Virus record (IMG/VR): IMGVR_UViG_3300037420_001273
Source of the DNA: a virus
Length of the DNA: 64,000 bases
Direction: 5' to 3' (one strand)
Every line of letters begins with the position of its first letter. The stretch's first letter is position 1. The notes below the pieces were generated by a model. That model was not told the DNA's origin. It searched no databases and worked only from the letters and a program-made list of their open reading frames with translations. The translations under genes and the position numbers were made by a program. Positions 7,497-27,736 of this stretch are shown piece after piece.

Positions 7497-7531
7497 ATCG
7501 AAGTTAGATCGTACTACGAAGTTAGAACGAA
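7497..7531. promoter_or_regulatory. TTAGATCG / TTAGAAC element (two copies, 18-bp phase)
   Basis: ATCGAAGTTAGATCGTACTACGAAGTTAGAACGAA abuts the ATG of 7071..7496. Confidence 0.6.
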
Positions 7532-7553
7532 GTGCAACGGAAAAACGAACGAT

Positions 7554-7754
7554 TTACTCGTTCAACCGTTGCTTGGCGACCTCTGTCGCATGGGCCTCGA
7601 TCGCGGCGGACCAGAGGGCCCGCAGGGAGTCGCCGCGTCGGTACGTGATGCATATGCCGCGCACTTCCAGATCGAAGGGAAGAGACGGGAACGGCCACTT
7701 GTCCTTAGCTGCCTCGGCCTCGAGGTAGTCGAGGATTTCTTTGTCGCTCAGCAT
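7554..7754 (-). CDS. hypothetical protein
   Basis: Track ORF, 66 aa. Confidence 0.45.
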   Translation of the reverse strand: MLSDKEILDYLEAEAAKDKWPFPSLPFDLEVRGICITYRRGDSLRALWSAAIEAHATEVAKQRLNE

Positions 7755-7990
7755 GTCAGCCTCGCTTTGACTGCCTTAGCTTGTTGCTTGCGGTGTTCTT
7801 GGATGATCCAGCGGAGGGCCTTGATCCTGCTCTTAGCTGGATGAATCTGAAGAGTTCCATAGGCCTGAATAGCACAGACCCAAAAGAACTCATGCTCCGC
7901 TACTGCCCACCAAAAACCACCGCGGCTTGACCACTTCCATGCACTGCCAAAGGGTCCCGGGTTACTTGCTGTACTCGACGGCATAGCCAC
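7748..7990 (-). CDS. hypothetical protein
   Basis: Track ORF, 80 aa, Trp-rich. Overlaps the polymerase 3' end by 29 nt. Confidence 0.4.
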   Translation of the reverse strand: MAMPSSTASNPGPFGSAWKWSSRGGFWWAVAEHEFFWVCAIQAYGTLQIHPAKSRIKALRWIIQEHRKQQAKAVKARLTC

Positions 7991-9986
7991 CCTCAGCGTT
8001 CAGTGGAATATCTGCACACCAGGCCGGTGGCGTGCGCATCACCTTGACCATGAAGTCGACGGCCTTCTGACCAACGGCCTTCTTCGCCAATGACACGACC
8101 TCGTCGTGCGTGGTCATGACAACCTGGTACACCTTGTCGATCGCGAGCAGCTGGCCCATCACGACGATCTTGGCCAGCGCCTGGACGATGTTCTCGCACA
8201 GCTTGCCGCCGTACAGCTTCGTAACGCCGTCGCGTGAGTCATAGACCCACGCATGTTCGAACTCTTCATCAGGGATCTGACGCAGGTGCGGGTAGTGCAG
8301 CGTCATGCCGTCAGGCAGATAGACGGTCTCCTTGTCCCAGCTCAAGCACTTCCAGCTGCCGGCGCGACCGACAGCCATGTCGGAGATGATCCGCTCGCAG
8401 ATCTTCCAGCCGATCTGGATCTTGCTGTTCTTGCGGCGGTATGCCTGCACCGCCATGCGGCACGTGTTCTCGTCGAGGAACACCGGCGGGCCCATCGTGC
8501 CGAGCGCGAGCGTGTTCTGGAACTTCTTCCAGGCCGCCTGGTAGCCGAGCATGAGCACGGCGACCTTGCCGACGAAGCGCTCGTCCTTGTCGCTCTTCTC
8601 GATACGCCGGCCGTAGATCTTGTCGCTCTGCTTGCAGTACGGGTCGCGGTCCGTGTGATTGTCCGCGTCGCGGAACTCCTGCAGCAGGTCGAGCTGGTCC
8701 CACAGCCACGCATTCATGCGTGCTTCGATCTGGCTCGAGTCGCACACGGCCAGGACATAGCCCGGCGGGGCTTTGATCGTCTTGCGCAGCTCGCTGCCGC
8801 GGCGCAGGTTCTGGAAGTTCGTCCCGTCACCGCCTCCGAGCCGCTTGGTGTGCGCGCCGGCGTATTTGTAGTACACCGGCAGGGGCAGTCCGTTTGCACC
8901 GAGCTTGAGGAACGTCGCCGCGCGGGTCTCTGTCCCGCTTGACTTCACCATGAGGCGCGCTTCGACCAGGTCGCGCACGCGGTCGTTCGAGTTCTCGAGC
9001 AGCTCGGTGAAGTCCAGGTCCGTCTTGCTGAACGCGTAGGTGTACTTCTTCGCGTCGTCACGCTGATCCTTGGGCTTCTTGATCCACGCCGGGCTGATCT
9101 TCATCGGCGGCTCGATGCCCTCGGCGCGCAGCAGCTCGGCGTAGCGGTCAGAGCCGATCAGCTTCTTGACGCGACGGATCGTCAGCTGTTCCTCGGTCGC
9201 CGTGGGCCCGAGCTTCTTGCGGTCCTCGCTGGTCAGCTTGATGTCTGCGGCCAGGTCGGCGAACGAGAGCAGCAGGGTGCGCTTGCGTTCCAGCTCGCGC
9301 TCGAGCTCTGCCCGGCAGCGGGCTTCGTCGAGCTTGAGCGCTGGTTGCGTGTACATCCGGCAGATGATGTGGATGAGCTCGAGCTCGTCGGCCGGCATCA
9401 TCGGGAGCATCTGCTCGAAGATGCGCCGGGTCTCCTCGCCGTCCTGCATGCAGTACAGCATCGCGCGCTCGAGCTTCGCCTTGTCCTTGGCGAGCTCGGC
9501 CCAGTGCATGCCTTTGAAGTCCTCGGTGCCGCTGGCTGCTTTGCCGCGGCCACCCAGGAAGCGAGCCACTTCGTCCAGGCCCGCGCCGATGGAGTTGCTG
9601 AACAGCCCGCGTGCCATCGACAACGTGCAGTACAAGCGCTTGGGCTTGATGCCGTAGTGGTGGCTCAGGATGAGCCCGTCGAACTGCGTGTGGTGGCACA
9701 GCAAGCTGTGCGTCTCCCACGGGATCTTGCGCAGCTCGGTGGCGATCTTCGGGCCTGGCACGACCTTGGCGGGCTTGTTGCCCACCTGCAGGTACACCAT
9801 CAGGGCTTCGAAGCGCGGATCGCGCACGTACTGCGACGTGGTCAGCTTCTTGAGCGTGTACGTCTCGTCATAGAACGACTCGAAGTCCAGCGTGACGAGC
9901 CGCGACCAGTCGACTTTCTCGGTCGGGAACACCGGCCGCTCGATCACGAGCGACGCCGGCTTCTTGATGGCGGAGGACCAGCCCAT
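7962..9986 (-). CDS. family A DNA polymerase with 3'-5' exonuclease domain
   Basis: Start moved to ATG 9986 (MGWSSAIKK...). Exo motif LDFESFYD; pol motif A CDSSQIEARMNAW; motif B RFVGKVAVLMLGYQAAW; motif C TTHDEVV. Confidence 0.9.
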   Translation of the reverse strand: MGWSSAIKKPASLVIERPVFPTEKVDWSRLVTLDFESFYDETYTLKKLTTSQYVRDPRFEALMVYLQVGNKPAKVVPGPKIATELRKIPWETHSLLCHHTQFDGLILSHHYGIKPKRLYCTLSMARGLFSNSIGAGLDEVARFLGGRGKAASGTEDFKGMHWAELAKDKAKLERAMLYCMQDGEETRRIFEQMLPMMPADELELIHIICRMYTQPALKLDEARCRAELERELERKRTLLLSFADLAADIKLTSEDRKKLGPTATEEQLTIRRVKKLIGSDRYAELLRAEGIEPPMKISPAWIKKPKDQRDDAKKYTYAFSKTDLDFTELLENSNDRVRDLVEARLMVKSSGTETRAATFLKLGANGLPLPVYYKYAGAHTKRLGGGDGTNFQNLRRGSELRKTIKAPPGYVLAVCDSSQIEARMNAWLWDQLDLLQEFRDADNHTDRDPYCKQSDKIYGRRIEKSDKDERFVGKVAVLMLGYQAAWKKFQNTLALGTMGPPVFLDENTCRMAVQAYRRKNSKIQIGWKICERIISDMAVGRAGSWKCLSWDKETVYLPDGMTLHYPHLRQIPDEEFEHAWVYDSRDGVTKLYGGKLCENIVQALAKIVVMGQLLAIDKVYQVVMTTHDEVVSLAKKAVGQKAVDFMVKVMRTPPAWCADIPLNAEGGYAVEYSK

Positions 9987-9991
9987 GCGAC

Positions 9992-10405
9992 TCAGTGTTC
10001 TTGTAGCAACAGCATGACGACGACATCGACCGGTGCAATCAACCCGTCGATCGCGAGCTCGAACGTCCACGTGCCTTTAGGGAAGTCCGTGTACTCGATA
10101 GTTCTCGTCCACGCCGCCGGCTCGTCATCTGCCGAAGAAAGACTGAGCACTGCCGTGTTGTTTGAAGCCACGGCGATCGTCAGCATTCCGGTCGGGTTGC
10201 TTCTCGCTTCCCAGTCGCGCATGACGAGAGGTGCGGCTTCAGTGGCAACGATGTCGAGCAGCCAGTACGCGCCTGCCGATTCAGCCATTGCCTTGACGCC
10301 CTCGGTGTAGATGAACCGCTTGTTGAACGGATGTCGATAGCGGCCGTCGCTGCCACCGAGGTACTGGTCCATGACGGCTTGAAGTTCTTGTGGTGTTGCG
10401 CTCAT
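9992..10405 (-). CDS. DUF6876-like protein
   Basis: 137 aa from ATG 10405. GGSDGRYRHPFNKRFIYTEGVKAMAESAGAYWLLDI matches my memory of DUF6876 (plasmid/phage leading-region family). Confidence 0.5.
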   Translation of the reverse strand: MSATPQELQAVMDQYLGGSDGRYRHPFNKRFIYTEGVKAMAESAGAYWLLDIVATEAAPLVMRDWEARSNPTGMLTIAVASNNTAVLSLSSADDEPAAWTRTIEYTDFPKGTWTFELAIDGLIAPVDVVVMLLLQEH

Positions 10406-10599
10406 TCGTGATCCTCGAGCTGGTTCGACACGGCGTCGGCTGCGTACTGGCACAGGCAGTACTCGTCGACGAGACGGCGGATCTCGTCGTACTCGCGCGA
10501 GCCGTCGTCCATCATCTGGCATGCCTTCTTGCGCGCGAAGTCAGCACGCGTCTGCAGTTTCTCGTGCGCCTTCTTCCTGTCCTCGCTGAGGTAGTTCAT
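10402..10599 (-). CDS. hypothetical protein
   Basis: Track ORF, 65 aa. ATGA overlap with the downstream gene. Confidence 0.4.
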   Translation of the reverse strand: MNYLSEDRKKAHEKLQTRADFARKKACQMMDDGSREYDEIRRLVDEYCLCQYAADAVSNQLEDHE

Positions 10600-10939
10600 T
10601 GCTTGACACTCCTGTGATTCGGTTGATCAGCTTCTTCATCCTCCGGCGCGCGTTTCGGTTCTCGTTGTTCTGCGCGGTTGTTAGTCTCGGCATCTGCACG
10701 TCGCGGCCCACGCCGAGCGAATACATCGCTGCGTAGCGTGTGCTGCCGCGCCCCGTCCCTTCGTGCCAGCCGCTGCGATAAATAGCCTTGCGCTTGTGCG
10801 CTGCTCGGATGTACTCGTACACCGTGTTGATCCGCAGGCCGGTGCGCTCTTGTAGCTCCTTCACCGTGCACGGGCCCTCGCTGAATGCGAGCAGGATCTC
10901 TGCGAACGCGATCGCGTTGTTGTTCGGCGGTCGTCTCAC
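10541..10939 (-). CDS. winged-helix DNA-binding protein (putative regulator)
   Basis: 132 aa. EGPCTVKELQERTGLRINTVYEYIRAAHKRKAIYRSGW is HTH-like. Confidence 0.5.
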   Translation of the reverse strand: MRRPPNNNAIAFAEILLAFSEGPCTVKELQERTGLRINTVYEYIRAAHKRKAIYRSGWHEGTGRGSTRYAAMYSLGVGRDVQMPRLTTAQNNENRNARRRMKKLINRITGVSSNELPQRGQEEGARETADAC

Positions 10940-12417
10940 GCAGCATCCTTGAGATCGAACTGCGACGTAAGACTTGCGAACAAGTCAAGGAGCGTGGTCA
11001 TGCGTTCGTTTTTGCGCATCAAGATGTCGTAGTACACGCGCTGGTCGATCCGGCAGTCGCCGAGCACGACGATCGTCTCGGTCTTCTCCGTCTGGCCGAT
11101 GCGGTGCTGGCGCTTGTTGCCTTGCTTCCACAGCTCGAGGTCCGCCGTCGGCGAGGGCCAGATCGTAGCCGTGCCCTTGGTCAACGTCAGACCGTGCGCC
11201 GCGCTCTTCGGGTGCGCGAACATGACGCGGTAGCGGCCCATCTGGTAGGCCAGCACCATCATGTCCCGCTCCTTGTCGTTCGTCGCTCCGTCGAGCACGC
11301 AATACGTCAGCCCGCGGCTCTCAGCCTCAGCGACCATCAGGTCACGCTGGTGCTGCCAGAGGAAGAACACGAGACTGTGCTTGCGCTGCTCGACCATGTC
11401 GAGCACGAGCTCGTAACGGCTGCTGTCGATGACATGGTAGTTGCCGTCGCTGTCGTAGACAGCGCCTGAGGCGATCTGCAGCAGCTTGCCGGCCAGCACC
11501 GCAGCGTTGAGTGCCGTGAGCGGCACCACGCTGGCTTTCTTGCCAGTGCTCAGGTACTGCTTCATCGCCGCCGGCGAGGTGTCAGTGATCAGCGCAATCT
11601 GGTCGCGCTCCATCTGTTCGTAGACGCGCCGCATCTTCTGCGGCATCTCGAAGTCGACCACATAGTGGTGGTTCGGCGGGATGTCGACGCAGTCCTCGAA
11701 CTTGTGCCGCACGACGATGTCACTGAGCAAGCCGAACACGGCTTCCTCGGCGCCTTCCTTGTCGACCCAGTCGATCATGTGCTGCTGTCGGCCGACTTGC
11801 TCAGGCACGCAGACGCTGTTGCGGAACGCATAGAAGCTAGGTCCGAGACGCTGGCCGCCGTCGAGAATGGCAACCTGGTGCCAGACGTCCGTGATCGAGC
11901 GTCCGTTGGGTGTGCCGGTGAGGCCGGAGCGGTGCTTGAAGTACTTTGCGATCTTCCTGAGCGCCTTGCTGCGCTGGCTGGTGTGGTGCTTGAATGCCGT
12001 GATCTCGTCGACGATCAGCTCGCTGAACTTCTTGAAGAACGCCGGCCGCTGATCTGCGACCCACTTCACTCCGTCCGTGTTCACGATGTAGACATCAGCA
12101 TCGACGGCGAACGCGTGAGCACGGTTGTCAGCGCGGGCGATTGACACGCGCATGTCCGGGGCGAACTTCTTAAAGTCGTTGGCCCATGCGCTCTTGAGCA
12201 GCGAGCGTGGTGCTACCACTAGCGCGCAGCCACCGCCTTTGCGCCGGCGCTCGGCGAACGCCGTGACCCGCACGAACGTTTTGCCGGTGCCGGGGTCGCT
12301 GCAGTCATAGACGACCTCAGTCGTCTTGTCGTGCTTGAGGCTCACCTTCTGGTGCGCCATTGCTTGAGATTTCATGAAGGTGTTTGCGTAGTGCTTCGCG
12401 AGAAGCGGGCGGAACAT
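10936..12417 (-). CDS. SNF2/DEAD-like superfamily 2 helicase
   Basis: Walker A DPGTGKT, DExx box LIVDEITAFKH, motif VI QHRIGQT. The start may be ATG 12375 or 12360 instead. Confidence 0.8.
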   Translation of the reverse strand: MFRPLLAKHYANTFMKSQAMAHQKVSLKHDKTTEVVYDCSDPGTGKTFVRVTAFAERRRKGGGCALVVAPRSLLKSAWANDFKKFAPDMRVSIARADNRAHAFAVDADVYIVNTDGVKWVADQRPAFFKKFSELIVDEITAFKHHTSQRSKALRKIAKYFKHRSGLTGTPNGRSITDVWHQVAILDGGQRLGPSFYAFRNSVCVPEQVGRQQHMIDWVDKEGAEEAVFGLLSDIVVRHKFEDCVDIPPNHHYVVDFEMPQKMRRVYEQMERDQIALITDTSPAAMKQYLSTGKKASVVPLTALNAAVLAGKLLQIASGAVYDSDGNYHVIDSSRYELVLDMVEQRKHSLVFFLWQHQRDLMVAEAESRGLTYCVLDGATNDKERDMMVLAYQMGRYRVMFAHPKSAAHGLTLTKGTATIWPSPTADLELWKQGNKRQHRIGQTEKTETIVVLGDCRIDQRVYYDILMRKNERMTTLLDLFASLTSQFDLKDAA

Positions 12418-12577
12418 CTGTGCGCAGCAGCCAGCGTGTGATCTCGGTGATCTTCTCTTCGCGTGTATGCTTGTTCAGCTCGGCAGTCCAGAACTGGATT
12501 CGTTCGTGCCTTTTCTCTGCCAAAGGACTCAACTCATCCCACGTGGTGATCATCTCAATGCACAAACGGACGTTCAT
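12317..12577 (-). CDS. hypothetical protein
   Basis: Track ORF, 86 aa. Confidence 0.45.
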   Translation of the reverse strand: MNVRLCIEMITTWDELSPLAEKRHERIQFWTAELNKHTREEKITEITRWLLRTDVPPASREALRKHLHEISSNGAPEGEPQARQDD

Positions 12578-12741
12578 TCATGCTCCCGACAAGCCCAGTG
12601 CCCGCCGTTGATACGCACGCAGGCAAGAGACGCCGTGCGGCGCGCTTCAATCTTCTGAGACGGCCTGGTCTCGGTGATGCAGAGCAGCAGCACGAGGTAG
12701 CCGATGATCGCGATCACGCTGCCGGCAACGAAGAGTTTCAT
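12574..12741 (-). CDS. small membrane protein (55 aa, below track cut-off)
   Basis: My translation: MKLFVAGSVIAIIGYLVLLLCITETRPSQKIEARR...REHE. N-terminal TM segment; ATGA overlaps at both ends. Confidence 0.45.
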   Translation of the reverse strand: MKLFVAGSVIAIIGYLVLLLCITETRPSQKIEARRTASLACVRINGGHWACREHE

Positions 12742-12962
12742 GTCCTAAGCCTCTCGGTGACTTCTGCGGCGAGCACGCGCTGGCATGCTTTGCACGTCGG
12801 CGTCTTGCTGGCTTGTCTCGGGTTCACAGGCATGTGTCGGTCGCTACCGCAGCTGCATTCACGACACACGGCTGTGAGCGTGCGCTTGCGGTTCGTCCAC
12901 ACCCAAGTGAGATGCGTCTTCACTTCCTCTGCACTCCGTCTTGACAGTGTCCAGAGCCCCAC
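12738..12962 (-). CDS. small zinc-ribbon-like protein
   Basis: Contains CRECSC...CKAC pairs. The start is uncertain: GTG 12962, or GTG 12923 with a GTGA overlap. Confidence 0.4.
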   Translation of the reverse strand: MGLWTLSRRSAEEVKTHLTWVWTNRKRTLTAVCRECSCGSDRHMPVNPRQASKTPTCKACQRVLAAEVTERLRT

Positions 12963-13627
12963 GGGCCGTAGCCGCAGTACTGGCAGCTGAACACGTTCGC
13001 GTTGGTCGGGAACTCCGTTGCCGTGGTGATCTGCATGCCGCGGCGGTGAAAGTTCGACTTGAAGCGCAGCGCCTGGTCGCGCGTGAAGACCTTCTTCGTC
13101 GTGTCGTTCTGGTCGAAGTACCAGAGCTCCGTCTCCACCACCTCGAGCTTCGGGTAGCGCAGCACGGCGTTGAGCGCGTACAGCGTCATCTGTTCACCGT
13201 GCTTGACCTCGTTGCCGAACTTGCGGCCGGTCTTGTAGTCGATGACCGTGGCGTAGGTGTCGTCCCAGAACACGGTGGCGTCGAGCTTGCAGCGGTGCCA
13301 GGCCGTCTTCCAGTCCGTCGGCTCCCACTCGTGATCGACAGCCCACTCGCCTTCGCAAGACACCAGGCCCTCCGCGTAGAGCACGCGCAACAGGTCGAGC
13401 TCGGGACCGAAATGCTTGGATGCCTCGGGTGCAAGGAGGTCGCTCTCGCCCTTGACGTACAGCTCCGCGCTGGCGTGGATGCGGGTGCCACGGTCGTTCG
13501 CGTGTTCCGTCTTGCCGGGAGGCAGGGGACGGACCGGCTCAGGGATGCGCTGGTCGCGCATGAGCCAGACGCGGTGCTTGCACTTGTCCCACTCAGCGAG
13601 GATGGAGTGACTCCAGGACTTGAGCAT
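12920..13627 (-). CDS. Cas4/RecB-like PD-(D/E)XK exonuclease with Cys cluster
   Basis: 235 aa. N-terminal Cys (WDKCKHR), core ...VIDYKTG..., C-terminal CQYCGYGPWGSGHC. Confidence 0.7.
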   Translation of the reverse strand: MLKSWSHSILAEWDKCKHRVWLMRDQRIPEPVRPLPPGKTEHANDRGTRIHASAELYVKGESDLLAPEASKHFGPELDLLRVLYAEGLVSCEGEWAVDHEWEPTDWKTAWHRCKLDATVFWDDTYATVIDYKTGRKFGNEVKHGEQMTLYALNAVLRYPKLEVVETELWYFDQNDTTKKVFTRDQALRFKSNFHRRGMQITTATEFPTNANVFSCQYCGYGPWGSGHCQDGVQRK

Positions 13628-13641
13628 GTTGGAGTGTCGTA

Positions 13642-13667
13642 GTTAGATCGAAACACGATCTTAGACC
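13642..13667. promoter_or_regulatory. TTAGATCGAA / TTAGACC element (18-bp phase)
   Basis: GTTAGATCGAAACACGATCTTAGACC lies 15 nt from the ATG of 12920..13627. Confidence 0.6.
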
Positions 13668-14481: not shown

Positions 14482-14483
14482 AG

Positions 14484-15993: not shown

Positions 15994-15997
<4 letters not shown>
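14873..15997 (-). CDS. putative metallopeptidase (HExxH) + von Willebrand A (VWA) domain protein
   Basis: 374 aa. AHEVGHCVFDH in the N-terminal half; MIDAS DxSxS (VIDTSGSID) in the C-terminal half. DUF2201/VWA-like layout, the usual partner of MoxR ATPases. Confidence 0.8.
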
Positions 15998-16301
<304 letters not shown>

Positions 16302-16305
<4 letters not shown>

Positions 16306-16541
16306 TTGCGCTGTCTGTAGGAACAGTTGATGATGAACAACACGGCTGCCGTGTTGAGCTTCACGGTGCCACACTTATCGAGAACGGTGCTCGATGTAGG
16401 ACCGTTCAAAGCGATCTCGCCGAGACCCTTCGTAGTGCCCCAATTGCGGACGACGCTTGCCTTCTCGAGTGTCTGCGCGTCAGCTTGTAGCTCTCCAATG
16501 AGCACCCAGCCGTTCGTGAGCACCACGATCTTCTCGTTCAT
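16302..16541 (-). CDS. hypothetical conserved phage protein
   Basis: 79 aa (MNEKIVVLTNGWVLIGEL...VRNWGTTKGLGEIALNGPT...). ATGA-coupled. Confidence 0.55.
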
Positions 16542-20139: not shown

Positions 20140-20306
20140 GTAGGTTTCCTTCTTTCGGTCGATTGCAGGAGTGCCTTCTTGACCAGCTCGACCTGGTACC
20201 GTTCAAGAAGTCTTTGCGCGAATGCTTCGCCTTTGGCTGCGCGTTCTTGGGCTATGAAGTCATACGCCTCGCGTGCCTTGAACCAAGCGTCTATGTCGAA
20301 TCTCAC
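20136..20306 (-). CDS. small helical protein (56 aa, below track cut-off)
   Basis: My translation from GTG 20306 (VRFDIDAWFKAREAYDFIAQERAAKGEAFAQRLLERYQVELVKK...). GAAGG SD; GTGA overlap with the AAA gene start. Confidence 0.4.
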   Translation of the reverse strand: MRFDIDAWFKAREAYDFIAQERAAKGEAFAQRLLERYQVELVKKALLQSTERRKPT

Positions 20307-20320
20307 TTAGACCTTCGATT
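20306..20320. promoter_or_regulatory. degenerate element copy
   Basis: CTTAGACCTTCGATT. Confidence 0.3.
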
Positions 20321-21349: not shown

Positions 21350-21383
21350 TCACGGGTCCTTTCTTCCGTGGGGTTGAGGGATT

Positions 21384-21865: not shown

Positions 21866-21866
21866 C

Positions 21867-22022: not shown

Positions 22023-22041
22023 GGCCTTGTAGGCTCCAAAG

Positions 22042-22067
22042 GTTAGATCGAACGAAGAGATTAGATC
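22042..22067. promoter_or_regulatory. TTAGATCGAACGAAGA / TTAGATC element (18-bp phase)
   Basis: GTTAGATCGAACGAAGAGATTAGATC lies upstream of ATG 22022. Confidence 0.6.
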
Positions 22068-22100
22068 ATGCGACGAAGCGCGTGGTCTACTGGTTTTCAC

Positions 22101-22340
22101 TCACTGGCGTAGCGTGCGTGCAACTTCTTGCGCAAGGTGATCTCGCGCTGCAGCGATGTAGAGGCGCATGGCAGTGATCGTGTAGTACTGCAGATACGGA
22201 AACTCGCTGCGATAGAAATGTTGAGGGCAGAGGCTCCGCATACGCCGGCGTGTGCGTCGGTTGAGCAGCAACGTGATCGTCGGCGGCTTAGCTCGGTCGC
22301 ACCTGGCTTCGAGCGTGTCGAGGAACTCGTGGTCAGTCAT
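22101..22340 (-). CDS. hypothetical protein
   Basis: 79 aa from ATG 22340 (MTDHEFLDTLEARCDRAK...). ATGA overlap with P3. Confidence 0.5.
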   Translation of the reverse strand: MTDHEFLDTLEARCDRAKPPTITLLLNRRTRRRMRSLCPQHFYRSEFPYLQYYTITAMRLYIAAARDHLAQEVARTLRQ

Positions 22341-22564
22341 TTGCGCAGACGTCCCCACGCGAGAGCTTCAGCAGCACTGTCGAACGTCTTCACGACGTCG
22401 TTGCTCAGGAGGTAGCGTCCGATCCACTCGGCAGCTTCTTCCTGCGTGTCGAATCCAGGTGATGGATCGTTCCAGAAAGGCATCCACCAGCGACGGTAAT
22501 GCGGGTCGAACCTGCCTGATGGCAGTTGAACGATGCGCACACGCGTACGGAAGGGGTTTTTCAT
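22337..22564 (-). CDS. small paralogue family member P3 (two FDT/FDS-EA boxes)
   Basis: 75 aa from ATG 22564: ...RRWWMPFWNDPSPGFDTQEEAAEWIGRYL...KTFDSAAEALAWGRLRK. Confidence 0.55.
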   Translation of the reverse strand: MKNPFRTRVRIVQLPSGRFDPHYRRWWMPFWNDPSPGFDTQEEAAEWIGRYLLSNDVVKTFDSAAEALAWGRLRK

Positions 22565-22749
22565 TTCTTCACCGGCGCTTGATGCTTCGCCCATTCTTCG
22601 AGCTGCTCTGCCGTCATCTCCTTGGGGCAGTACTCGAGCATGAGCGCATCGATCCTGGCTTGAAGAGCTTGCGCGTCTTCGTAGCGCACGTAACGGCCGT
22701 CTTCACGAACGACCATCGCGACATTGGGCTCGGGGTTGAATCGAATCAT
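22561..22749 (-). CDS. hypothetical protein
   Basis: 62 aa from ATG 22749 (MIRFNPEPNVAMVVREDGRYVRYEDAQALQ...). ATGA overlaps at both ends. Confidence 0.5.
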   Translation of the reverse strand: MIRFNPEPNVAMVVREDGRYVRYEDAQALQARIDALMLEYCPKEMTAEQLEEWAKHQAPVKK

Positions 22750-22961
22750 TGCGTCAAGACCTTGTAGGCGTATGCAGCTTCGGCGGTGTCGAAGGGGCCG
22801 TAGTAACTGGCGGGTGGTGGGGCGGCGTTGTAGACCCAATACTTGCTGGTGCGGTATTCACGAACGACGCCCCAACTGTTTTCAGCATCTGCGACCCATA
22901 ATTGGTCGTACCACATGCCCCACCACGAAAGATTCGTGGATTTGAGTGTCTCGGGCTTCAT
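22746..22961 (-). CDS. small paralogue family member P4
   Basis: 71 aa from ATG 22961: ...SKYWVYNAAPPPASYYGPFDTAEAAYAYKVLTQ. Confidence 0.6.
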   Translation of the reverse strand: MKPETLKSTNLSWWGMWYDQLWVADAENSWGVVREYRTSKYWVYNAAPPPASYYGPFDTAEAAYAYKVLTQ

Positions 22962-23230
22962 TCCTTGAGCAACAGCAGCGCTGTTTCCGCGGCTTCGAGT
23001 GTGTCGTACGGGCCGACGTTGTCGAACTCCGCGTCTTCGTCGTGTGGTGTGATCCACCACTTGTCGTCGTCGAGGAACTGGCCGATGCCTACGCTGACGC
23101 CTTTGACAACTGGTGCGGAAGGTTTAGAGCCGCTACCGTACCAGTGGATGTATTTGCGTCGTGTAGGTATATGCACGAACGACACGTCGTACATGGGCTT
23201 CTCGACGTGGTGAGGCAGGAAATTGCTCAT
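22958..23230 (-). CDS. small paralogue family member P5
   Basis: 90 aa from ATG 23230: ...DDDKWWITPHDEDAEFDNVGPYDTLEAAETALLLLKE. Confidence 0.6.
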   Translation of the reverse strand: MSNFLPHHVEKPMYDVSFVHIPTRRKYIHWYGSGSKPSAPVVKGVSVGIGQFLDDDKWWITPHDEDAEFDNVGPYDTLEAAETALLLLKE

Positions 23231-23451
23231 GACGTTAGCACCAGTACAACGTACGCAGCTTCGAACGTGTCGAAGGGACCGTTGACTACACCAACTTTGC
23301 GGAGTGTGTTGCGCACCCAAAACTTGTGGTTCGTGTCTTCCCAGATACGCCAGTGGTTAGACGGTTCTTTTATCCACCAATGCAGTATTTGGAAGCCGTA
23401 GCACGCGTTTATATCACCTTGTGTTGGTTGAAATGGACCTTTGAGCTTCAT
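23227..23451 (-). CDS. small paralogue family member P6
   Basis: 74 aa: ...NHKFWVRNTLRKVGVVNGPFDTFEAAYVVLVLTS. Confidence 0.6.
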   Translation of the reverse strand: MKLKGPFQPTQGDINACYGFQILHWWIKEPSNHWRIWEDTNHKFWVRNTLRKVGVVNGPFDTFEAAYVVLVLTS

Positions 23452-23456
23452 GCCTT

Positions 23457-23702
23457 TCAGTCTTTCATGAGCACGACGGCGGTGTGCGCGGCTTCGATGC
23501 TCGTGTACGGACCATAGCGCGACGGATTCTCGAACTCACACGCTTCGATCCAGAACTCACCGTTCTTGTACTCGGCGATAAGTACCTCAACGCCCTTTAT
23601 GGACCATTCGCTGTCGTTGCCGAACGGAGTAGCTGACCAATATCGCCTGATGCTTTGTTCTCGGCCGTTGTAGTTCACCGGCGGAAACGTGTGGAGCTTC
23701 AC
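23457..23702 (-). CDS. small paralogue family member P7
   Basis: 81 aa: ...KNGEFWIEACEFENPSRYGPYTSIEAAHTAVVLMKD. Confidence 0.6.
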   Translation of the reverse strand: MKLHTFPPVNYNGREQSIRRYWSATPFGNDSEWSIKGVEVLIAEYKNGEFWIEACEFENPSRYGPYTSIEAAHTAVVLMKD

Positions 23703-23708
23703 GGGATG

Positions 23709-23935
23709 TCAGTCCTTGAGCAGCTGGACGACAACATGAGCCTCTTTGAGCGTGTCGTAGGGACCGTACTCGAATGAGTTGGACATGTCTTGGTATGGGA
23801 CGATGAAGAACTTGCCCCTGTGCTCGAGGCCATGTCTCCTTTTATGAACCAGCTACCTATGTCAGGTATCCAAATGTCTTTGTACTCTCTGTTGCGTGCG
23901 GTTTTGGCGATCCAATGAACTCGGCAGAGCTTCAT
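23709..23935 (-). pseudogene. small paralogue family member P8, split by a -1 frame change at an A4 run
   Basis: Frame A from ATG 23935 gives MKLCRVHWIAKTARNREYKDIWIPDIGSWFIK. The -1 frame continues RRHGLEHRGKFFIVPYQDMSNSFEYGPYDTLKEAHVVVQLLKD* (stop 23711..23709). The junction is at TTTT 23840..23843. Confidence 0.5.
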
Positions 23936-26310
23936 CCCTTCGCTCCTACAGCTTTGAGCTCAGGCTTGCCGGTCGGTGCGAACAAGCGCTTGAAGCGGGG
24001 CCACTGCGTGAGGTCGCGCCACTGCACCTTCAAGCCGTAGACGGGCTCGCCGTCGACGCGTACGCGCTCGGTGGTGATGCGATGATGCTTGACGAAGCTG
24101 GTGAATTTGTTCGGGCTGTCGGGGATCTTGCCGACGGTGTACTCGAAGATGGCACGCAGCTCGTCGCGAGCGATATTGCAGCGGCCGTCGTTCATGTCCG
24201 TGCGCTCGAGCAGGCTCTTGATCACGTTCTTGTAGTCCTCGACCTTCGCGATCGAGCTGGCGCTGCCGAGGTAGCGGCTGTCCGTCGGCAGCTGGTCGAT
24301 GAAGAACTCCATGTCGCCCTTGAGCAGCGCGTTCGCGACGCTGTCGGCTGAGGACTCGGTCAGGTCCATCAATGTGTCACGGTCGGCGTTTTGCAGAACG
24401 TTGAAGACCTTCGCGCGGTCGACCTTGAGTGCGAGCAGGAAGTCGTGGAACGGCTGCAGCTCGCGCTCGATCGTGGCCAGGTCTTTCTCGGTCAGCACGA
24501 TCTTGTTCGGCTGGTACTTCGCGACGTTGAAGCGTCGATCATCCTTGGTCACGCGCACGGGTGCTGAGGCGTTCGAGCAAAAGATCCACGCGGTGTAGTT
24601 GCGCACCAGGCGAGCAGTGGCATGCATGCGGCGCACCGGGATGAACTCATCGGTGATGTACATGCGCAGGTCCGCCATGGCTCCGCGCTCGTTCGACAGT
24701 GCGTTGGTCTCGACCTCATCGACGGTGATCAGCAGGTTGTTCTCGATGAAGTCGTTGAACTTCTCGTCGAGCTGCTTCATGCGGATGACGGTGGAGTGCT
24801 GCAGGCCGAAGAGCGGGCGCAGGATCTTCGCGACCAGCGTGCCCTTACCTGTGCCGGGGATGCCGTGAAAGACCCAGGCGGTGAGCGGACGATCGCGTTC
24901 CTGCAGCACGTAGGCCAGCCAGTTGACGAAATGGTTGTACGAGTCCGTGTCGTTGCCGCACACGTGCTCGATGACCTTGCGGATCGTCTTCGGCATATGA
25001 GCGATAGGCTTGGCCTGCGCTTTCATGAAGGAGCTCAGCTGGAACGTGTTGATGACGCGGTTGTCGATGTCCACGCGTACGCTGTCGTGCGGGTCGAACA
25101 CAAGGCGCCATTCGGGGATCACGCCGTCGGGCAGCTGTATGCCGTTGGCTTTGGCGAAGTCCATCAGGACCTTGGAGCTCTTGGTTGGTTCGAGCTCGAG
25201 CTCGTCGTTGACCGAATCGTAAGTGCCGCGCCAGTAACGGTCGGTAGCTGGATCGATGAACGCGAGCTTGAGTACGCCCTGGGAGTCCGCCTTCACCGGC
25301 TGGTGGTGGAGCTGCTCCCAGTACTCAGGTAGCAGCTCCTTGGTCAGATAGATCGGCTCGCCCTTGAAGTTGAAGATGAACTCGGGGTTGTTCTCGGGGT
25401 GGTAGTACGCCCAGGAGTCACCGCCATTGAGATTGAAGTAGACGAAGCCGCGTTCTTGCTTGATCTCGGTGACGGAGCAGACGTCGGGCTTGACCAACAC
25501 CTCCATGCCGCTGTGCATCTTGTACTGCGTCTTGCGCTTGGGCAGTCCGTCGGTGGCGCGCAGCTCGTCGATGCGCTTGTTGATGGACTCGCGGTTCTTG
25601 GCGACAGTCGGGACAGCGGTGATGGACAAGCGTTCCTTGTCCTTGCGCACGAGCGTGATGCGCGGCTGGTTCTTTAGCGGGTCTTTCACGCCCTTGAGCA
25701 CCGGCGAGGCGATGTAGATCAGCTTGTCGTTCTGGCTTGCGCTGGTGTCCAGCGGCCAGTGGATCGAGTTGCCGGTCTTGGTCAGCGTCATCGACTCACG
25801 CAGCAGCGGCGTGGAGAAGTTCAGGCCGATGAGCCACTGCTTGAGCTGCGGCGCAGGCATTGGCTTGTCGAGCAGCATGAATACGTGCGCGCGCAGCTGC
25901 TTGTTCTCGAGTCCGTAGCTGGCGGACCATTGGACGATGTAGGAGACGTCGTTCAGGCCGAGCACGAACAGAACGTCGTCGACGGTGACGGTCGCTGTCT
26001 TGCCGTCCACGGTGGTGGTGTCGGGCAGTCCGTCGATGTCCAGGCAGATCCACTCGGTGGGCTCGTTGCTGTCCGTGGTGCCGGCACGCGACTCGTTGAC
26101 GAGGGTGCGAGCCAGGTGGCCTTTGAGCAGGCAGTGGTTGAGCTTGGCGTGGTGCTTGAGCACAGCTTCGAAGTCGCGCAGGTCGCGCACGTTCGCTTCG
26201 TGGCTGGTGACTTCGTAGACGTGTGGGTAGGGGGTCTTCTTGAGCGTTCCCTGCGCAAGCTCGTAGGTCTTGGTCAGGGGCACTGTGGCTTCGAGGAAGT
26301 GCAGCTTCAT
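23932..26310 (-). CDS. primase-helicase (SF3, D5/P4-type NTPase with large N-terminal presumed primase domain)
   Basis: 792 aa. Walker A VFHGIPGTGKGT, Walker B LLITVDEVE. N-terminal primase motifs not verified by eye. No SD upstream of the ATG. Confidence 0.8.
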   Translation of the reverse strand: MKLHFLEATVPLTKTYELAQGTLKKTPYPHVYEVTSHEANVRDLRDFEAVLKHHAKLNHCLLKGHLARTLVNESRAGTTDSNEPTEWICLDIDGLPDTTTVDGKTATVTVDDVLFVLGLNDVSYIVQWSASYGLENKQLRAHVFMLLDKPMPAPQLKQWLIGLNFSTPLLRESMTLTKTGNSIHWPLDTSASQNDKLIYIASPVLKGVKDPLKNQPRITLVRKDKERLSITAVPTVAKNRESINKRIDELRATDGLPKRKTQYKMHSGMEVLVKPDVCSVTEIKQERGFVYFNLNGGDSWAYYHPENNPEFIFNFKGEPIYLTKELLPEYWEQLHHQPVKADSQGVLKLAFIDPATDRYWRGTYDSVNDELELEPTKSSKVLMDFAKANGIQLPDGVIPEWRLVFDPHDSVRVDIDNRVINTFQLSSFMKAQAKPIAHMPKTIRKVIEHVCGNDTDSYNHFVNWLAYVLQERDRPLTAWVFHGIPGTGKGTLVAKILRPLFGLQHSTVIRMKQLDEKFNDFIENNLLITVDEVETNALSNERGAMADLRMYITDEFIPVRRMHATARLVRNYTAWIFCSNASAPVRVTKDDRRFNVAKYQPNKIVLTEKDLATIERELQPFHDFLLALKVDRAKVFNVLQNADRDTLMDLTESSADSVANALLKGDMEFFIDQLPTDSRYLGSASSIAKVEDYKNVIKSLLERTDMNDGRCNIARDELRAIFEYTVGKIPDSPNKFTSFVKHHRITTERVRVDGEPVYGLKVQWRDLTQWPRFKRLFAPTGKPELKAVGAKG

Positions 26311-26323
26311 GGGGCGCTCAGTG

Positions 26324-26347
26324 TAGATCGAACGAAGACGTTAGAAC
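26324..26347. promoter_or_regulatory. TAGATCGAACGAAGA / TTAGAAC element (18-bp phase)
   Basis: TAGATCGAACGAAGACGTTAGAAC lies 13 nt from the primase-helicase ATG. Confidence 0.6.
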
Positions 26348-26397
26348 AGAGCTCAAGTTCCGGTCTGGATCGGGACAACGGAACGCCAAAAACGCGC

Positions 26398-26585
26398 CTA
26401 AGTCCTTGATTCTTAAGCTTTGTTCTAATGTTCTGTTCCATTCTTGATTTTTCTTGTATGAAAGAGAAATACTTAATATACAGAGATACTATATAAAAAG
26501 TACTGTATGGAAAAGTATGTTGGGGGGAGTATCAAAAGTGCTCTCTCCTATAAAGAGTTGGAGAGATCGGAACGGAATTTTGGAA
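26398..26585. promoter_or_regulatory. AT-rich island with short direct repeats (candidate origin and/or strong promoter region)
   Basis: About 190 bp of strikingly AT-rich DNA in a GC-rich genome, just upstream of the primase-helicase gene. Repeats TGTTCT x2, TTCTTG/TTCTTA x3-4, GTACT/GTATG; inverted TCTCTCC...GGAGAGA. Confidence 0.5.
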
Positions 26586-26605
26586 CAGGGGGCCGGAGCC
26601 CCCTG
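26586..26605 (-). terminator. GC hairpin after gene 26612..27466
   Basis: CAGGGGGC-CGGA-GCCCCCTG lies 6 nt past the stop codon. No clean U tract. Confidence 0.35.
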
Positions 26606-26611
26606 CGTGCG

Positions 26612-27466
26612 TCACTCGATGGCGTTGAAGTGCTTGTGCTTGAGCTGCACGCCGAGCTGCTTCTTGAGCTCGCGCACGTCGGTGAACAGTGTCGCGAAGT
26701 CGAGCGACGACACGCGGTTATCGCGCCGGGCGTTGTCGACGCAGCGGTCGAGACCGCGCATCGCAGCGTTGAGCAACTTGAACTGCGTGCGCGCGTCCAA
26801 GTCGCCGAACGGGTCGTCGTGCATCGTGTCCAGGCTGATGTTCATGCAGTTGAACAACACGGTCAGCGACTTGGCTCGGTTCTTGTCGAAGTCGTGCAGG
26901 CGCACCTGCTCGAGCTTGTCCTTGGTCGCGAGGTCATGACGCAGCGCTTCGGCCAGTTCCTTGTCGCCGTCGGCGATGAGCTCGATGAGCTGCTCGTTCT
27001 TGGCGCGCGTCTCGGCGGTGACCGAGCGCAACCGCGGGTTGGAGATGACGTCGTGCAGTGCCGGGATCTTGGTCGAGTCGCCCTTATGGATGCGGTGCCA
27101 GATCTCTTCGCGGATGTCGAGCAGCAGAGCGATGCGCTGCTTCGTCTCCGTGACCTCGAAGCCTTGGTCCTGCAGGTTGGCTTCGTTCTCGTTCAGGCTC
27201 TCGACGAACGCGAGCATCGCCGCGTACGAGTCGAACGTCGGCTCTTCCGTGTTCTGGTCGCCACGGTAGAAGTCGTTGAGCATCTGGCCGAGCGTGGCGG
27301 TGATGTTGCCGTCGGCGCTGAACGCGATCGCGCGCATGACCTCATCCTTGATCCGGTCGTTGTCGATGGCTTCGGTCCAGTCGAGCAGATCGAACGAGAA
27401 CGGGTTGAGCTGCGAGTGCACGGCAGCGGCTTGTTCGGGGGTCAGGACATGGGTTTGGTTGGCCAT
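26612..27466 (-). CDS. hypothetical early/middle protein
   Basis: Track ORF, 284 aa, GGAG SD. No motif recognised. Confidence 0.6.
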   Translation of the reverse strand: MANQTHVLTPEQAAAVHSQLNPFSFDLLDWTEAIDNDRIKDEVMRAIAFSADGNITATLGQMLNDFYRGDQNTEEPTFDSYAAMLAFVESLNENEANLQDQGFEVTETKQRIALLLDIREEIWHRIHKGDSTKIPALHDVISNPRLRSVTAETRAKNEQLIELIADGDKELAEALRHDLATKDKLEQVRLHDFDKNRAKSLTVLFNCMNISLDTMHDDPFGDLDARTQFKLLNAAMRGLDRCVDNARRDNRVSSLDFATLFTDVRELKKQLGVQLKHKHFNAIE

Positions 27467-27556
27467 GATGAAGTTCTCCAGGTAAGTTGCGTTGAATGCC
27501 GGTTACGTCGAACGACTCCATCACTCAGGACGCTCGTCGTTCTTTCCGGCGGTATT

Positions 27557-27736
27557 TCACCCGTGGTTGAGCGTAAGCAAGGCGAGGGGCATGCCCAGAT
27601 CCTCTTCGTGCTCGGCGACTTCGTCGAACACGGGATCGTCGGACTCGGTGATGGGTTCTAGCTCGAGTTCATCGCGTGGTTGCTCCAGTAGATCGAACGA
27701 AGAGATGCGAACGCGAACGACAGCTACGCGGGCCAT
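27557..27736 (-). CDS. possible small acidic protein (59 aa, below track cut-off)
   Basis: My translation: MARVAVVRVRISSFDLLEQPRDELELEPITESDDPVFDEVAEHEEDLGMPLALLTLNHG. The 3' two-thirds is GC3-rich. The 5' part coincides with a TAGATCGAACGAAGA element, so the start is doubtful. Confidence 0.3.
   Translation of the reverse strand: MARVAVVRVRISSFDLLEQPRDELELEPITESDDPVFDEVAEHEEDLGMPLALLTLNHG
27689..27703. promoter_or_regulatory. TAGATCGAACGAAGA element
   Basis: Third exact copy of the 15-mer. Confidence 0.5.

Follow-up and report, generated by a model that had tools for sequence, protein, structure and literature searches.

The repeated motif TTAGATCGAA of an uncultured phage is real and forms half of a signal of ~23 bp preceding ~17 gene blocks, where it most likely marks transcription starts as well as the binding place of a candidate regulator. 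Read with the gene, this directional composite consists of a -10-like box, TC[T/G]A[A/T]nnT, followed after 8 bp by GATC[T/G]AA. On balance, the composite is probably a family-specific promoter module for the host polymerase, lacking a -35 element and carrying an operator-like core at the predicted transcription start, with the motif as its downstream half.

Enrichment and Architecture of the Composite Element

Within the window, i.e., the whole 64-kb stretch of DNA analyzed, TAGATCGAA occurs in nine exact copies as opposed to 0.18 expected from dinucleotide shuffles, none of which reached nine. A preliminary description had counted at least eight copies of this 9-mer against an expectation well below one, and the enrichment over shuffled controls that it anticipated is present. 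Furthermore, GTTAGATCGAA is the top over-represented 11-mer of the window (six copies vs 0.009 expected), and the 15-mer TAGATCGAACGAAGA, described as exact in three sites, is found at 22044, 26324, and 27689. The strict composite yields 11 matches against 0.24 expected (200 shuffles) and a 26-nt PWM yields 23 against ~0.35. The good composite sites number ~17, comprising all 15 PWM matches of ≥19 bits and two sites with a 9-nt spacer (Table 1).

The 8-bp stretch between box and core is semi-conserved (C[T/G]nnnTT[A/C]), and the GATC-centered core has the consensus [A/C]GATC[G/T]AA. No conserved -35 hexamer was found across the composite sites. The box hexamer conserves A at its second (A2) and T at its sixth position (T6), the two positions of a -10 hexamer on which sigma-70 is strictest. 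Several box hexamers are nevertheless poor -10 elements (GAAGCT, GCATCT) for which neither a -35 element nor a TGn extension compensates. The composite sites of the window lie 0–40 nt ahead of start codons, with distances as low as -3 nt from the core; Shine-Dalgarno sequences are often absent at these starts and elsewhere directly follow the core (GATCGAAGGAG). Terminator-like hairpins precede five sites, and the composites at 42750 and 47405 occupy tiny gaps without an upstream terminator, where they could be taken for intercistronic RNA signals.

The five sites listed in the preliminary description read exactly as written there, and four of them indeed contain another TAGA at a distance of 18 bp, start to start (7505/7523, 13644/13662, 22044/22062, and 26324/26342). 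This spacing is present in four of the 11 core sites; the supposed downstream half-site is, however, rather an upstream -10-like box in gene direction. The start codons 7496, 13627, and 26310 were confirmed, with 7–15 nt between element and ATG, and the idea of a promoter- or operator-like element near starts often devoid of a Shine-Dalgarno sequence agrees with its intergenic location, co-orientation with genes, placement after terminators, and recurrence in relatives. Its restriction to the replication (left) arm does not hold, since equally good sites lie in the right arm at 42750, 47405, 50768, 52553, 59114, and 38303; further left-arm sites were found at 3112, 3620, 4435, and 10972. Only part of the element had thus been seen, the real unit being the directional composite, and the earlier interpretation is partly supported overall.

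Table 1. Composite elements, variants, and the capsid promoter in the window (sites 1–5: those of the preliminary description).
Position (strand)	Sequence	Start codon	Detection	Context
3090..3112 (-)	TCGAAGCT-cttcgtgc-GATCTTG	23 nt before ATG 3066	regex + PWM 22.4 bits	downstream gene 2257-3066 ParB-like (PHROG)
3598..3620 (-)	TCGAAGCT-cgaaccac-GATCTAA	overlaps ATG 3598	regex + PWM	terminator-like hairpin 3640-3655 upstream
4412..4435 (-)	TCGTATGTC-gcatgcta-GATCGAA	ATG 4371 (55-aa ORF)	pattern match	9-nt spacer, core in G form; followed by TACACT, the ORF, and terminator 4113-4134: small self-contained promoter-ORF-terminator unit, 4435 to 4113
7504..7526 (-)	TCTAACTT-cgtagtac-GATCTAA	7 nt before ATG 7496	PWM 31.2 bits	site 1; right after terminator 7546-7564
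10950..10972 (-)	TCTTACGT-cgcagttc-GATCTCA	10 nt before GTG 10939	PWM 19.3 bits	within 3' end of SNF2 helicase gene; downstream gene 10541-10939 wHTH (Pfam pRN/HTH_20)
13643..13665 (-)	TCTAAGAT-cgtgtttc-GATCTAA	15 nt before ATG 13627	PWM 29.4 bits	site 2; PD-(D/E)XK nuclease gene
20296..20318 (-)	TCGAAGGT-ctaagtga-GATTCGA		PWM 15.5 bits	weak variant; gap before AAA ATPase gene (start 20139)
22043..22065 (-)	TCTAATCT-cttcgttc-GATCTAA	20 nt before ATG 22022	PWM 33.6 bits	site 3
26323..26345 (-)	TCTAACGT-cttcgttc-GATCTAC(ACT)	12 nt before ATG 26310	PWM 29.0 bits	site 4; DUF5906 primase-helicase gene
27688..27710 (-)	TCGCATCT-cttcgttc-GATCTAC	15 nt before ATG 27672	PWM 22.4 bits	site 5; variant
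29680-29702 (-)	TCTTAGAT-agaacttc-GATCGAA			leftward; divergent control region 29680..29707
29685-29707 (+)	TCGAAGTT-ctatctaa-GATTGCG	4 nt before terS ATG 29712		rightward variant
38298..38313 (+)	TACATT, then TCGATCTAAC	103 nt before ATG 38417		capsid promoter (major head protein), other geometry; terminator 38265-38289 upstream
42750..42772 (+)	TCGAACCT-cgaacgac-GATCGAA, then GGAGG	13 nt before ATG 42786	PWM 28.0 bits
47405..47427 (+)	TCTAACGT-ctaacgaa-GATCGTG	GTG 47425	PWM 27.8 bits	exactly fills gap from stop codon 47402-47404 to start
50768..50790 (+)	TCGAATAT-cgaagtta-GATCGAA, then cc-TATAAT-N7-ATG	ATG 50806	PWM 31.0 bits	after terminator 50712-50732; head closure gene
52553..52575 (+)	TCGAAGCT-cttagtta-GATCGAA, then GGAA	10 nt before ATG 52586	PWM 33.0 bits	virion protein gene
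59114..59137 (+)	TCGTACAAT-ctaagtta-GATCGAA, then GGAG	9 nt before ATG 59147	pattern match	9-nt spacer

Orientation of the Composite and Its Core

The composite is co-oriented with the downstream gene at 17/17 good sites, on the - strand in the left arm and on the + strand in the right (p ~8e-6), while the asymmetric core TAGATCG may face either way at the same position within it. GATCT is the form used in the left arm and GATCG that in the right, and the bases flanking GATC covary (C..T 18, A..G 15, C..G 1, A..T 1). Such covariation amounts to the same asymmetric duplex being flipped, which argues for recognition at the DNA level. TAGATCG lies on the + strand in 9/11 core copies, a split that alone reaches p ~0.07, and this shared strand is a by-product of the different core forms in the two arms. 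The impression that the element always keeps one absolute orientation was mistaken, as the cores at 4412 and 38303 lie on the - strand; what is fixed is the direction of the composite relative to transcription.

In the divergent control region, the leftward and rightward elements have the palindromic TTCGATCGAA in common. Ahead of the capsid gene, terminator and TAnnnT are conserved in dozens of relatives and the TCGATCTAA add-on occurs in a subset. Here, the core lies 2 nt past the comparatively conserved TAnnnT instead of 8, and many relatives keep the TAnnnT without the core, which suggests that the core is a separable add-on.

Recurrence in Relatives

Across uncultured relatives, the composite has 45 matches in 1.25 Mb as opposed to 5–12 (mean 7.6) in shuffles. 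Intergenic DNA holds 37 of these 45, although non-coding DNA makes up only 19%; among these 37, 31 share the direction of the next gene and 25 are ≤60 nt from that gene's start. The core is present in both orientations within one arm. The element, whose conservation was proposed earlier as a check, recurs in these genomes but is absent from the isolate KPP25 (primase identity 42%) and from an Acidovorax prophage relative, so that the composite is not essential to the gene layout of the family.

At individual loci, the variant at 27688..27710 is kept in the closest relative (L001/L005), a related palindrome precedes the orthologous PD-(D/E)XK nuclease gene in another (L004/L006), and the 25-mer TACAATCTAAGTTAGATCGAAGGAG of the 59114 site is identical in L096, whose primase is only 52% identical. 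The promoter region orthologous to that of the primase-helicase gene was compared in ~65 relatives. For the 50768 site, the counterpart in L084-L086 reads terminator, then GGATCGAC-N7-TAGAAT-N6/7-start codon. Family-wide, TCTAA located upstream of genes has a T at +7 in 71% of cases, which yields TAAnnT. In many relatives, the terS promoter reads TCTAACC TCTAAGT TAGAAT N7 ATG, a leaderless geometry which argues that such regions are promoters. The relative integrated in an Acidovorax chromosome indicates that temperate members exist and, together with the nearest isolates, which infect Pseudomonas, points to proteobacteria as likely hosts.

Proposed Promoter Module and Rival Explanations

Since some start codons lie only -3, -1, or 4–10 nt from the core, and Shine-Dalgarno sequences come directly after it, transcription cannot begin downstream of the core; this favors a -10 role for the upstream box. 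In the proposed mechanism, DNA opening by host RNA polymerase at the box would be followed by initiation ~7–9 nt further on, either at GATC or immediately ahead of it. The resulting leaders would be very short: in some, the core is followed at once by a Shine-Dalgarno sequence, and others would be nearly leaderless. The core would act as an asymmetric double-stranded site (TAGATCG) working in either orientation and is probably bound by a candidate phage regulator over the start point, in which case one protein could switch ~17 transcription units. For some sites, the true -10 element could be a TAnnnT other than the box, e.g., TATAAT at 50793 or TACACT at 26320-26325, the latter of which is conserved in relatives. 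There is also a depletion of consensus sigma-70 promoters (0, 1, and 1 vs 2–3 expected per 20 kb). A repressor matching the motif was not found, and a gene-by-motif association over 52 loci yielded nothing significant for a regulator tied to the core. Among four wHTH proteins suggested as binders, an HTH domain is detectable only in those encoded by 10541-10939 and 1548-1811, neither of which is linkable to the motif. Nothing supports the suggested iteron or replication role; as an origin, the separate AT-rich repeats at 26350-26610 are the better candidate. Likewise, a "middle" class is not assignable because the element occurs both in the earliest leftward promoter region and at late structural genes.

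A pure operator array, in which one global phage protein such as a lysogeny or timing repressor binds both TCTAAC-type and TAGATCG boxes scattered across all promoters, in the manner of P1 C1 operators or mycobacteriophage L5 stoperators, and neighboring TAnnnT sequences are the real promoters, is rather unlikely. It would accommodate a core that functions both ways round at a kept position and lies at variable distances from the best -10 candidates: 2 nt after TACATT (capsid), 2 nt before TATAAT (50793), and directly before TACACT in L011-type relatives. The family-wide TCTAA boxes as 7-bp direct repeats and TCTAAnTTAGA palindromes, the existence of temperate members, and a wHTH gene with its own composite 10 nt upstream are also in its favor. 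Independent operators, however, need neither the strict gene direction nor the fixed 8-bp spacing, and the box conserves A2 and T6 as a -10 element does; moreover, neither repressor nor integrase was found in the window, and none of the protein families tracks motif use over the 52 loci. It is still less probable that an unrecognized phage sigma-like factor or RNA polymerase reads the whole ~23-bp composite as one recognition sequence, comparable to T7-type or T4 late and middle promoters. A long, conserved, directional element right before genes and after terminators, with short leaders and no -35, would fit such an enzyme, as would the depletion of host-type promoters and the many ORFs without a detectable family, several of 589 to >1024 aa. 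Yet Pfam and PHROGs revealed neither a polymerase nor a sigma domain in the ORFs scanned, one enzyme would be unlikely to tolerate a flippable core, and the sites vary more than T7-type promoter sets do. The leftward 29680-29702 element is of the same type and, if it is the earliest promoter, must act before any phage protein.

Similarly improbable is a signal at the RNA level, with the composite transcribed in polycistronic mRNAs and acting in 5' untranslated or intercistronic stretches as a translation enhancer, ribosome standby, or processing site, much like the start-associated sequences (SAS) of cluster K mycobacteriophages. The direction of the element, its location always within ~40 nt of a start codon, often right behind the previous stop codon (42750, 47405) with a Shine-Dalgarno sequence immediately past the core, and the ~2.5:1 sense:antisense ratio of TCTAAC family-wide (median ~21 nt from the ATG) are compatible with it. 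The flipped core, however, gives two different RNAs (AGAUCGAA and CGAUCUAA) but the same duplex DNA, some sites directly follow intrinsic terminators or lie in the divergent region, into which no transcript from upstream is expected, the distance to the start codon is variable, and no Rfam family matches. Localized single-strand interruptions are known from T5, phiKMV, and tf, and Dam-type control provides a methylation parallel, but a strand-specific mark, with TAGATCG as nicking-enzyme or methylase target and a functional + strand orientation, is highly improbable here. While the core contains GATC, which is not avoided (468 copies vs ~217 expected from base composition), the excess of TAGATCG on the + strand is weak and accounted for by the two arms, relatives show both orientations on one arm, neither methylase nor nickase was detected, and the tight tie to gene starts and direction is unexpected for nick sites.

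Comparison With Known Systems

The proposed host-polymerase promoter module resembles known phage promoter sets, namely the 23-bp promoters of the T7 group, the T4 late promoters (TATAAATA), and the MotA-dependent T4 middle promoters, in that one conserved directional sequence precedes many units, often after terminators, with short leaders and without a normal -35; in T4, the late and middle classes also pair a -10-like element with a second box. In contrast to these sets, no polymerase, sigma, MotA, or AsiA homolog was found in the phage, and the composite is more variable and has an invertible downstream half, which to our knowledge none of these promoter types tolerates. P1 C1 operators (17 bp, >14 sites) and the stoperators of cluster A mycobacteriophages (L5 gp71; 13–14 bp, ~30 sites) share an asymmetric 7–11 bp site present in at least a dozen short intergenic regions genome-wide, near or at promoters and sometimes as partial palindromes. 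Their sequences are unrelated, however, and the phage core is fixed 8 bp from a -10-like box; L5 stoperators are oriented, whereas the core's own orientation is not tied to transcription, and the window revealed neither a repressor nor an integrase or immunity region.

The SAS/ESAS elements of cluster K mycobacteriophages are likewise short, conserved, gene-oriented sequences repeated shortly before numerous start codons. In SAS, the ribosome-binding site is part of the sequence, at a fixed distance of 3–8 nt from the start codon, whereas the phage element lies at -3 to 40 nt, follows terminators, and has a core that flips at the DNA level. Finally, promoters without a -35 and leaderless promoters acting via a TAnnnT box alone are common in actinobacteria and known from some phages. 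They share with the composite the conserved A2 and T6 and the missing -35, and several genes start 6–9 nt past TAnnnT (terS in relatives; 50793-50806 in the window). In contrast to the actinobacterial promoters, the phage's likely hosts are proteobacteria, and its box combines an unusual TC prefix with a conserved downstream GATC core.

Genome Organization and Relatives

The window represents most of the genome of a phage of ~64-70 kb (G+C 60-65%), which is divided into two arms of opposite polarity (see the table). Among isolates it is closest to the KPP25 group of Pseudomonas phages, with identities of 35% for the polymerase and 42% for the primase, and its relatives in metagenomes number in the thousands (more than 2,500 primase homologues). 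A scan of IMG/VR with the capsid protein returned at least 599 matching stretches, and among the matches listed a capsid relative is encoded in 591. Searches of other kinds were less productive: a near-identity DNA search of phage records with the window gave no match, a homologue search with the tail protein encoded at 55611-57875 gave a single one, and locus scans with the primase as single protein found no relatives, whereas an alignment-based scan did recover loci. Nothing relevant was found in the literature on KPP25 or on the motif strings. The chromosome of Acidovorax sp. T1m (CP021648.1, 2.39-2.41 Mb) harbors a relative as a prophage; its primase is 54% identical and the prophage contains an IS21-type insertion (rve + IstB). 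At least some family members would thus be temperate, with Comamonadaceae as hosts.

The open reading frame at the right end of the window corresponds by position to a giant structural protein of the KPP25 virion and remained without match in Pfam, PHROG and PDB sequence searches. Covariance models from Rfam gave no match at gathering thresholds over the whole window, and a tRNA scan of it was negative.

Coordinates of composite sites and other features in the window
Feature	Position	Strand	Remarks
Left arm	1-29.4 kb	-	Family A DNA polymerase, SNF2 helicase, PD-(D/E)XK nuclease, DUF2201 protein, AAA ATPases, DUF5906 primase-helicase
Right arm	29.7-64 kb	+	terS, terminase, P22-type portal, major head protein, head-closure protein, virion proteins
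Good composites	3112, 3620, 4435, 7526, 10972, 13665, 22065, 26345, 27710, 29702	-
Good composite, weaker	6204	-	GTTC in place of GATC in core
Good composites	29685, 42750, 47405, 50768, 52553, 59114	+
Candidate DNA binder	1548-1811		HTH_17
Candidate DNA binder	2257-3066		Weak ParB-like
Candidate DNA binder	10541-10939		wHTH; own composite 10 nt upstream
Mini-unit	4113-4435	-	Predicted composite promoter, hydrophobic/basic 55-aa ORF (4204-4371), intrinsic terminator (4113-4134); embedded in 3' end of ORF 4368-4772
CGGCAA hexanucleotide repeat	16112-16285	-	12-mer in 8 copies vs 0.01 expected; within coding region, ORF 15994-16374 (weak TrAA12-like Pfam match)
AT-rich 260-bp non-coding stretch	26350-26610		Between 284-aa ORF 26612-27466 and primase-helicase gene
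GC-rich hairpin	29445-29470		Followed by TTCGATCTCATG
Invariant 11-mer CYTCGGATTCG	29521-29531	-	Within CCCCACTTCGGATTCG
Strong terminator-like hairpin	29605-29634	-	13-bp stem and T run, ~50-90 nt downstream of composite 29702
A/T-rich divergent tract	29650-29675		Partly palindromic (AAAATTTTAGAAAA / TTTTCTAAATTTTTTTT)
Right-end ORF	60926-64000		>1024 aa; continues past right end of window

A Two-Part Composite at Gene Starts

Alignment of the sites along the direction of the gene that each precedes, instead of along the + strand, revealed a two-part composite, in which a -10-like box, TC[T/G]A[A/T]nnT, is followed after 8 bp by a GATC[T/G]AA core. The composite is a real feature of this genome: its strict form matches 11 times, compared with 0.24 in 200 dinucleotide shuffles, and a 26-nt weight matrix matches 23 times (about 0.35 expected). 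The 17 good sites, a count that takes in two with a 9-nt spacer, are all oriented with the local genes, and five of them are preceded by a terminator-like hairpin. The distance from the end of the composite to the start codon ranges from -3 to 40 nt, leaving out the site at 29702, which has a ~280-nt leader ahead of it, and the site at 6204, for which the downstream start codon is not clear.

Much of the preliminary description stands. The five left-arm sites that it had listed, the three start codons and the further TAGA found at +18 in four of the sites are all as described; the 15-mer TAGATCGAACGAAGA is present in three copies, and the enrichment of TAGATCGAA holds against shuffled controls (9 copies vs 0.18 expected), the most over-represented word of the window being GTTAGATCGAA (6 copies vs 0.009 expected). 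These coordinates are nevertheless only part of the full site set. The element is not confined to the left arm, as four copies sit in the right arm, and the single absolute strand assigned to it applies to most copies but not to those at 4412 and 38303, which are on the - strand. The 18-bp-phased second half-site does exist, but it is the upstream box of the composite viewed from the opposite strand and not a partner site. A role as replication iterons does not fit either, since the sites are single and spread over 56 kb at gene starts, whereas iterons cluster at an origin.

Two further matches were discarded. The TTAGATCTAA at 31796 lies inside the terminase gene, where it encodes Leu-Asp-Leu, for which the related locus L001 uses other codons, and the match at 33594-33613 (-), in a likely coding region and with neither core form, is probably due to chance. 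At two sites with GATCG cores the opposite strand also shows a weak composite (50785 and 52570, both on the - strand), scoring 15.6 and 14.9 bits; these may represent antisense starts toward the upstream gene or a by-product of the near-palindrome.

Conservation in Relatives

Exact-motif counts in relatives appeared negative at first, and a scan of viral contigs with the exact 15-mer returned mostly chance matches, the sole true relative being locus L096; conservation became visible only with the composite pattern. In ~1.25 Mb of primase-anchored loci the composite matches 45 times (5-12 in shuffles), and 37 of these matches are intergenic, although non-coding DNA makes up 19% of the total. 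Among the intergenic matches, 31/37 face the same way as the gene that follows, and 25/37 are no more than 60 nt away from its start. Both KPP25, whose intergenic regions contain no comparable repeat, and the Acidovorax prophage lack the element.

A 25-mer across the 59114 site is identical in L096, even though the primases share just 52% identity, and the head-closure gene of relatives at ~42% identity still shows, in addition to a near-leaderless start, the terminator followed by a GATCGA element and a TAnnnT box. Across the family, ATCTAA, TCTAAC and TCTAAG show the strongest upstream enrichment of any hexamers apart from A/T tracts and ribosome-binding sites, with a ~2.5-fold bias for the sense strand. 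In 71% of cases TCTAA has a T at +7, the sixth position of TAAnnT, and the TCTAA-type hexamers form either direct repeats of 7 bp or the palindrome TCTAAnTTAGA. Upstream of terS, many relatives show TCTAACC-TCTAAGT-TAGAAT-N7-ATG, a leaderless-mRNA geometry which indicates that such regions are promoters.

The Upstream Box and the Predicted Start Point

In the 11 best sites, position 2 of the box hexamer is A and position 6 is T in 10 sites each, including some hexamers that are otherwise poor, such as GAAGCT. The start codons lie as close to the core as -3, -1 and 4-10 nt, the Shine-Dalgarno sequence can follow directly 3' of it (GATCGAAGGAG), and both are always located at or past the core, so the start point cannot lie downstream of it. 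These features favor the upstream box as the putative -10 element, with initiation at or adjoining the GATC. Two other sequences would compete for the same role: a TACACT overlaps the core at the primase gene and is kept in many relatives, and a TATAAT at 50793 is ideally placed for a leaderless start at 50806.

Ahead of the box, the aligned sites share no conserved sequence and no TTGACA-like -35 hexamer. Promoters of the sigma-70 consensus are themselves depleted in the window (0-1 per 20 kb vs 2-3 expected), the capsid promoter at 38274-38303 being the sole match of the scan. Reading two TCTAAC boxes as sigma-70 -35 and -10 elements was rejected, as the spacer would be 14 bp and no -10 element lies past the core in sites with GATCG, and ECF, sigma-28 and sigma-54 geometries do not fit the aligned sites by eye. 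In dozens of relatives a TAnnnT box directly follows the terminator at the capsid gene, while the TCGATCTAA core 2 nt past it is restricted to the lineage of the window and some others. The core thus behaves as a module in its own right, at a spacing from the -10 element that can vary, which is operator-like.

Two Orientations of One Asymmetric Core

The core is near-palindromic, TT[A/C]GATC[G/T]AA, and TAGATCG(AA) is present in at least 11 copies in intergenic gaps of both arms. Left-arm composites carry the C-GATC-T form in eight of ten cases, and right-arm composites have G after GATC in all five and A before it in four of five. As both arrangements place TAGATCG on the + strand, its absolute orientation had seemed constant; in relatives, both forms occur on one arm, even at the orthologous primase promoter, and a fixed strand is therefore no general property.

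The bases flanking GATC covary. In 48 intergenic composites pooled from the window and its relatives, C..T was counted 18 times and A..G 15 times, with C..G and A..T found once each, such that symmetric versions are nearly absent. By this pattern, C..T and A..G are one asymmetric duplex that can face either way without changing its place. All 18 C..T and 15 A..G cores lie within co-oriented composites, so that orientation is a property of the complete composite and not of its core. Avoidance of palindromes or restriction sites was rejected as the cause, given that the window contains CGATCG and AGATCT in excess of expectation. The covariation speaks for a reader that recognizes double-stranded DNA and would be indifferent to the direction of an asymmetric site; it predicts that inversion of the core (TTAGATCGAA to TTCGATCTAA) is tolerated and that the symmetric TTAGATCTAA and TTCGATCGAA are not.

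A separate observation concerns GGATCC (BamHI-type), which has no copy in the window compared with 13.5 +/- 3.3 in dinucleotide shuffles, while the remaining NGATCN hexamers are at expectation or higher. This suggests selection by a GGATCC-specific host restriction system.

Control Region, Likely Origin and Early Leader

The AT-rich stretch beside the primase-helicase gene contains several short direct and inverted repeats that differ in sequence from the composite, and at the equivalent place in relatives there are repeats that are likewise AT-rich and resemble iterons (GAATGTAAG, AGAATAGAAG and others like them); it is a likely replication origin. The 11-mer CYTCGGATTCG is found in 43 of 111 loci, including the distant isolate KPP25 and locus L111 (23961-23971), nearly always as one copy within the leader of the early leftward genes, on their strand. 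RNAalifold on a 19-sequence alignment revealed no conserved structure, and the 11-mer may be a regulatory element conserved more deeply than the composite. The two hairpins that follow composite 29702 suggest that early transcription stops after a short distance here, or that they form an attenuator dependent on antitermination. The A/T tract keeps its position between the arms across the family, and the upstream hexamers of highest rank derive from it; an UP element is one possible role, and binding of a DNA-bending protein of the host is another.

Candidate Readers and Interpretation

In none of the open reading frames scanned within the window was an RNA polymerase, a sigma factor, an integrase or a classical repressor (CI-like repressors included) detected. 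The large open reading frames show no RNA polymerase domain in Pfam or PHROGs, a negative that is not absolute because the window ends at 64000 inside a giant one, and the two largest without assignment have no PDB sequence match. Three candidate DNA binders were identified (see the table), and a coiled-coil protein is encoded at 29011-29319 in the left arm. Among the small early proteins, the best conserved one (28095-28397) appears to be a membrane protein and was rejected as regulator, and a comparison of protein families with motif use (52 loci, ~20 kb per relative) gave no significant association (best p 0.04, uncorrected).

From these sequence patterns we infer both initiation and binding, and the composite is best explained as a family-specific promoter module lacking a -35 element, in which the predicted start point is covered by a GATC core that resembles an operator and is independent of orientation. 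Its main rival is a pure operator array, with which the separable core would agree; the near-invariant A2 and T6 of the box and the strict orientation of the composite with the genes speak rather for a promoter. A phage sigma factor or polymerase of an unrecognized kind might read the composite, and the absence of a -35 hexamer would suit it, but this is less likely: the divergent control region has a leftward element of this composite type too, which together with the depletion of sigma-70 consensus promoters makes the host polymerase the most economical reader. An RNA-level signal associated with starts, as the proximity to start codons could imply, is likewise less likely, as the covariation argues against an RNA-level function of the core. 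That the GATC-centred core is a nick or methylation mark is unlikely.

More speculatively, and with considerable doubt, the promoter-operator module might extend to a whole clade of uncultured proteobacterial podophages. There, a -35-less TC-TAAnnT box with an orientation-independent TAGATCG operator exactly over the start point would govern nearly all units as a genome-wide switch read by a phage protein, and core orientation could encode temporal class (GATCT for the early/replication arm, GATCG for the structural arm). The clade is very large and has almost no cultured members, and a defined promoter/operator module would provide an operon map for its genomes, a concrete starting point for work with reporters and with transcription in vitro, and a bait with which to find the regulator. 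If the composite is merely a lineage-specific promoter consensus, it helps annotation without being a surprise.

Comparison With Known Systems

Elements of this kind are already known. The core shares with stoperators and P1 C1 operators an asymmetric site at many intergenic positions genome-wide; however, the orientation of stoperators follows transcription, whereas the core described here faces both ways relative to the gene. The SAS of cluster K phages lie at a fixed, short distance from the start codon and include the ribosome-binding site, whereas the distance of the composite varies and the Shine-Dalgarno sequence, if any, comes after it. What is new is this architecture and above all the flipped core, whose covariation is an unusual and clean mark of recognition at the DNA level.
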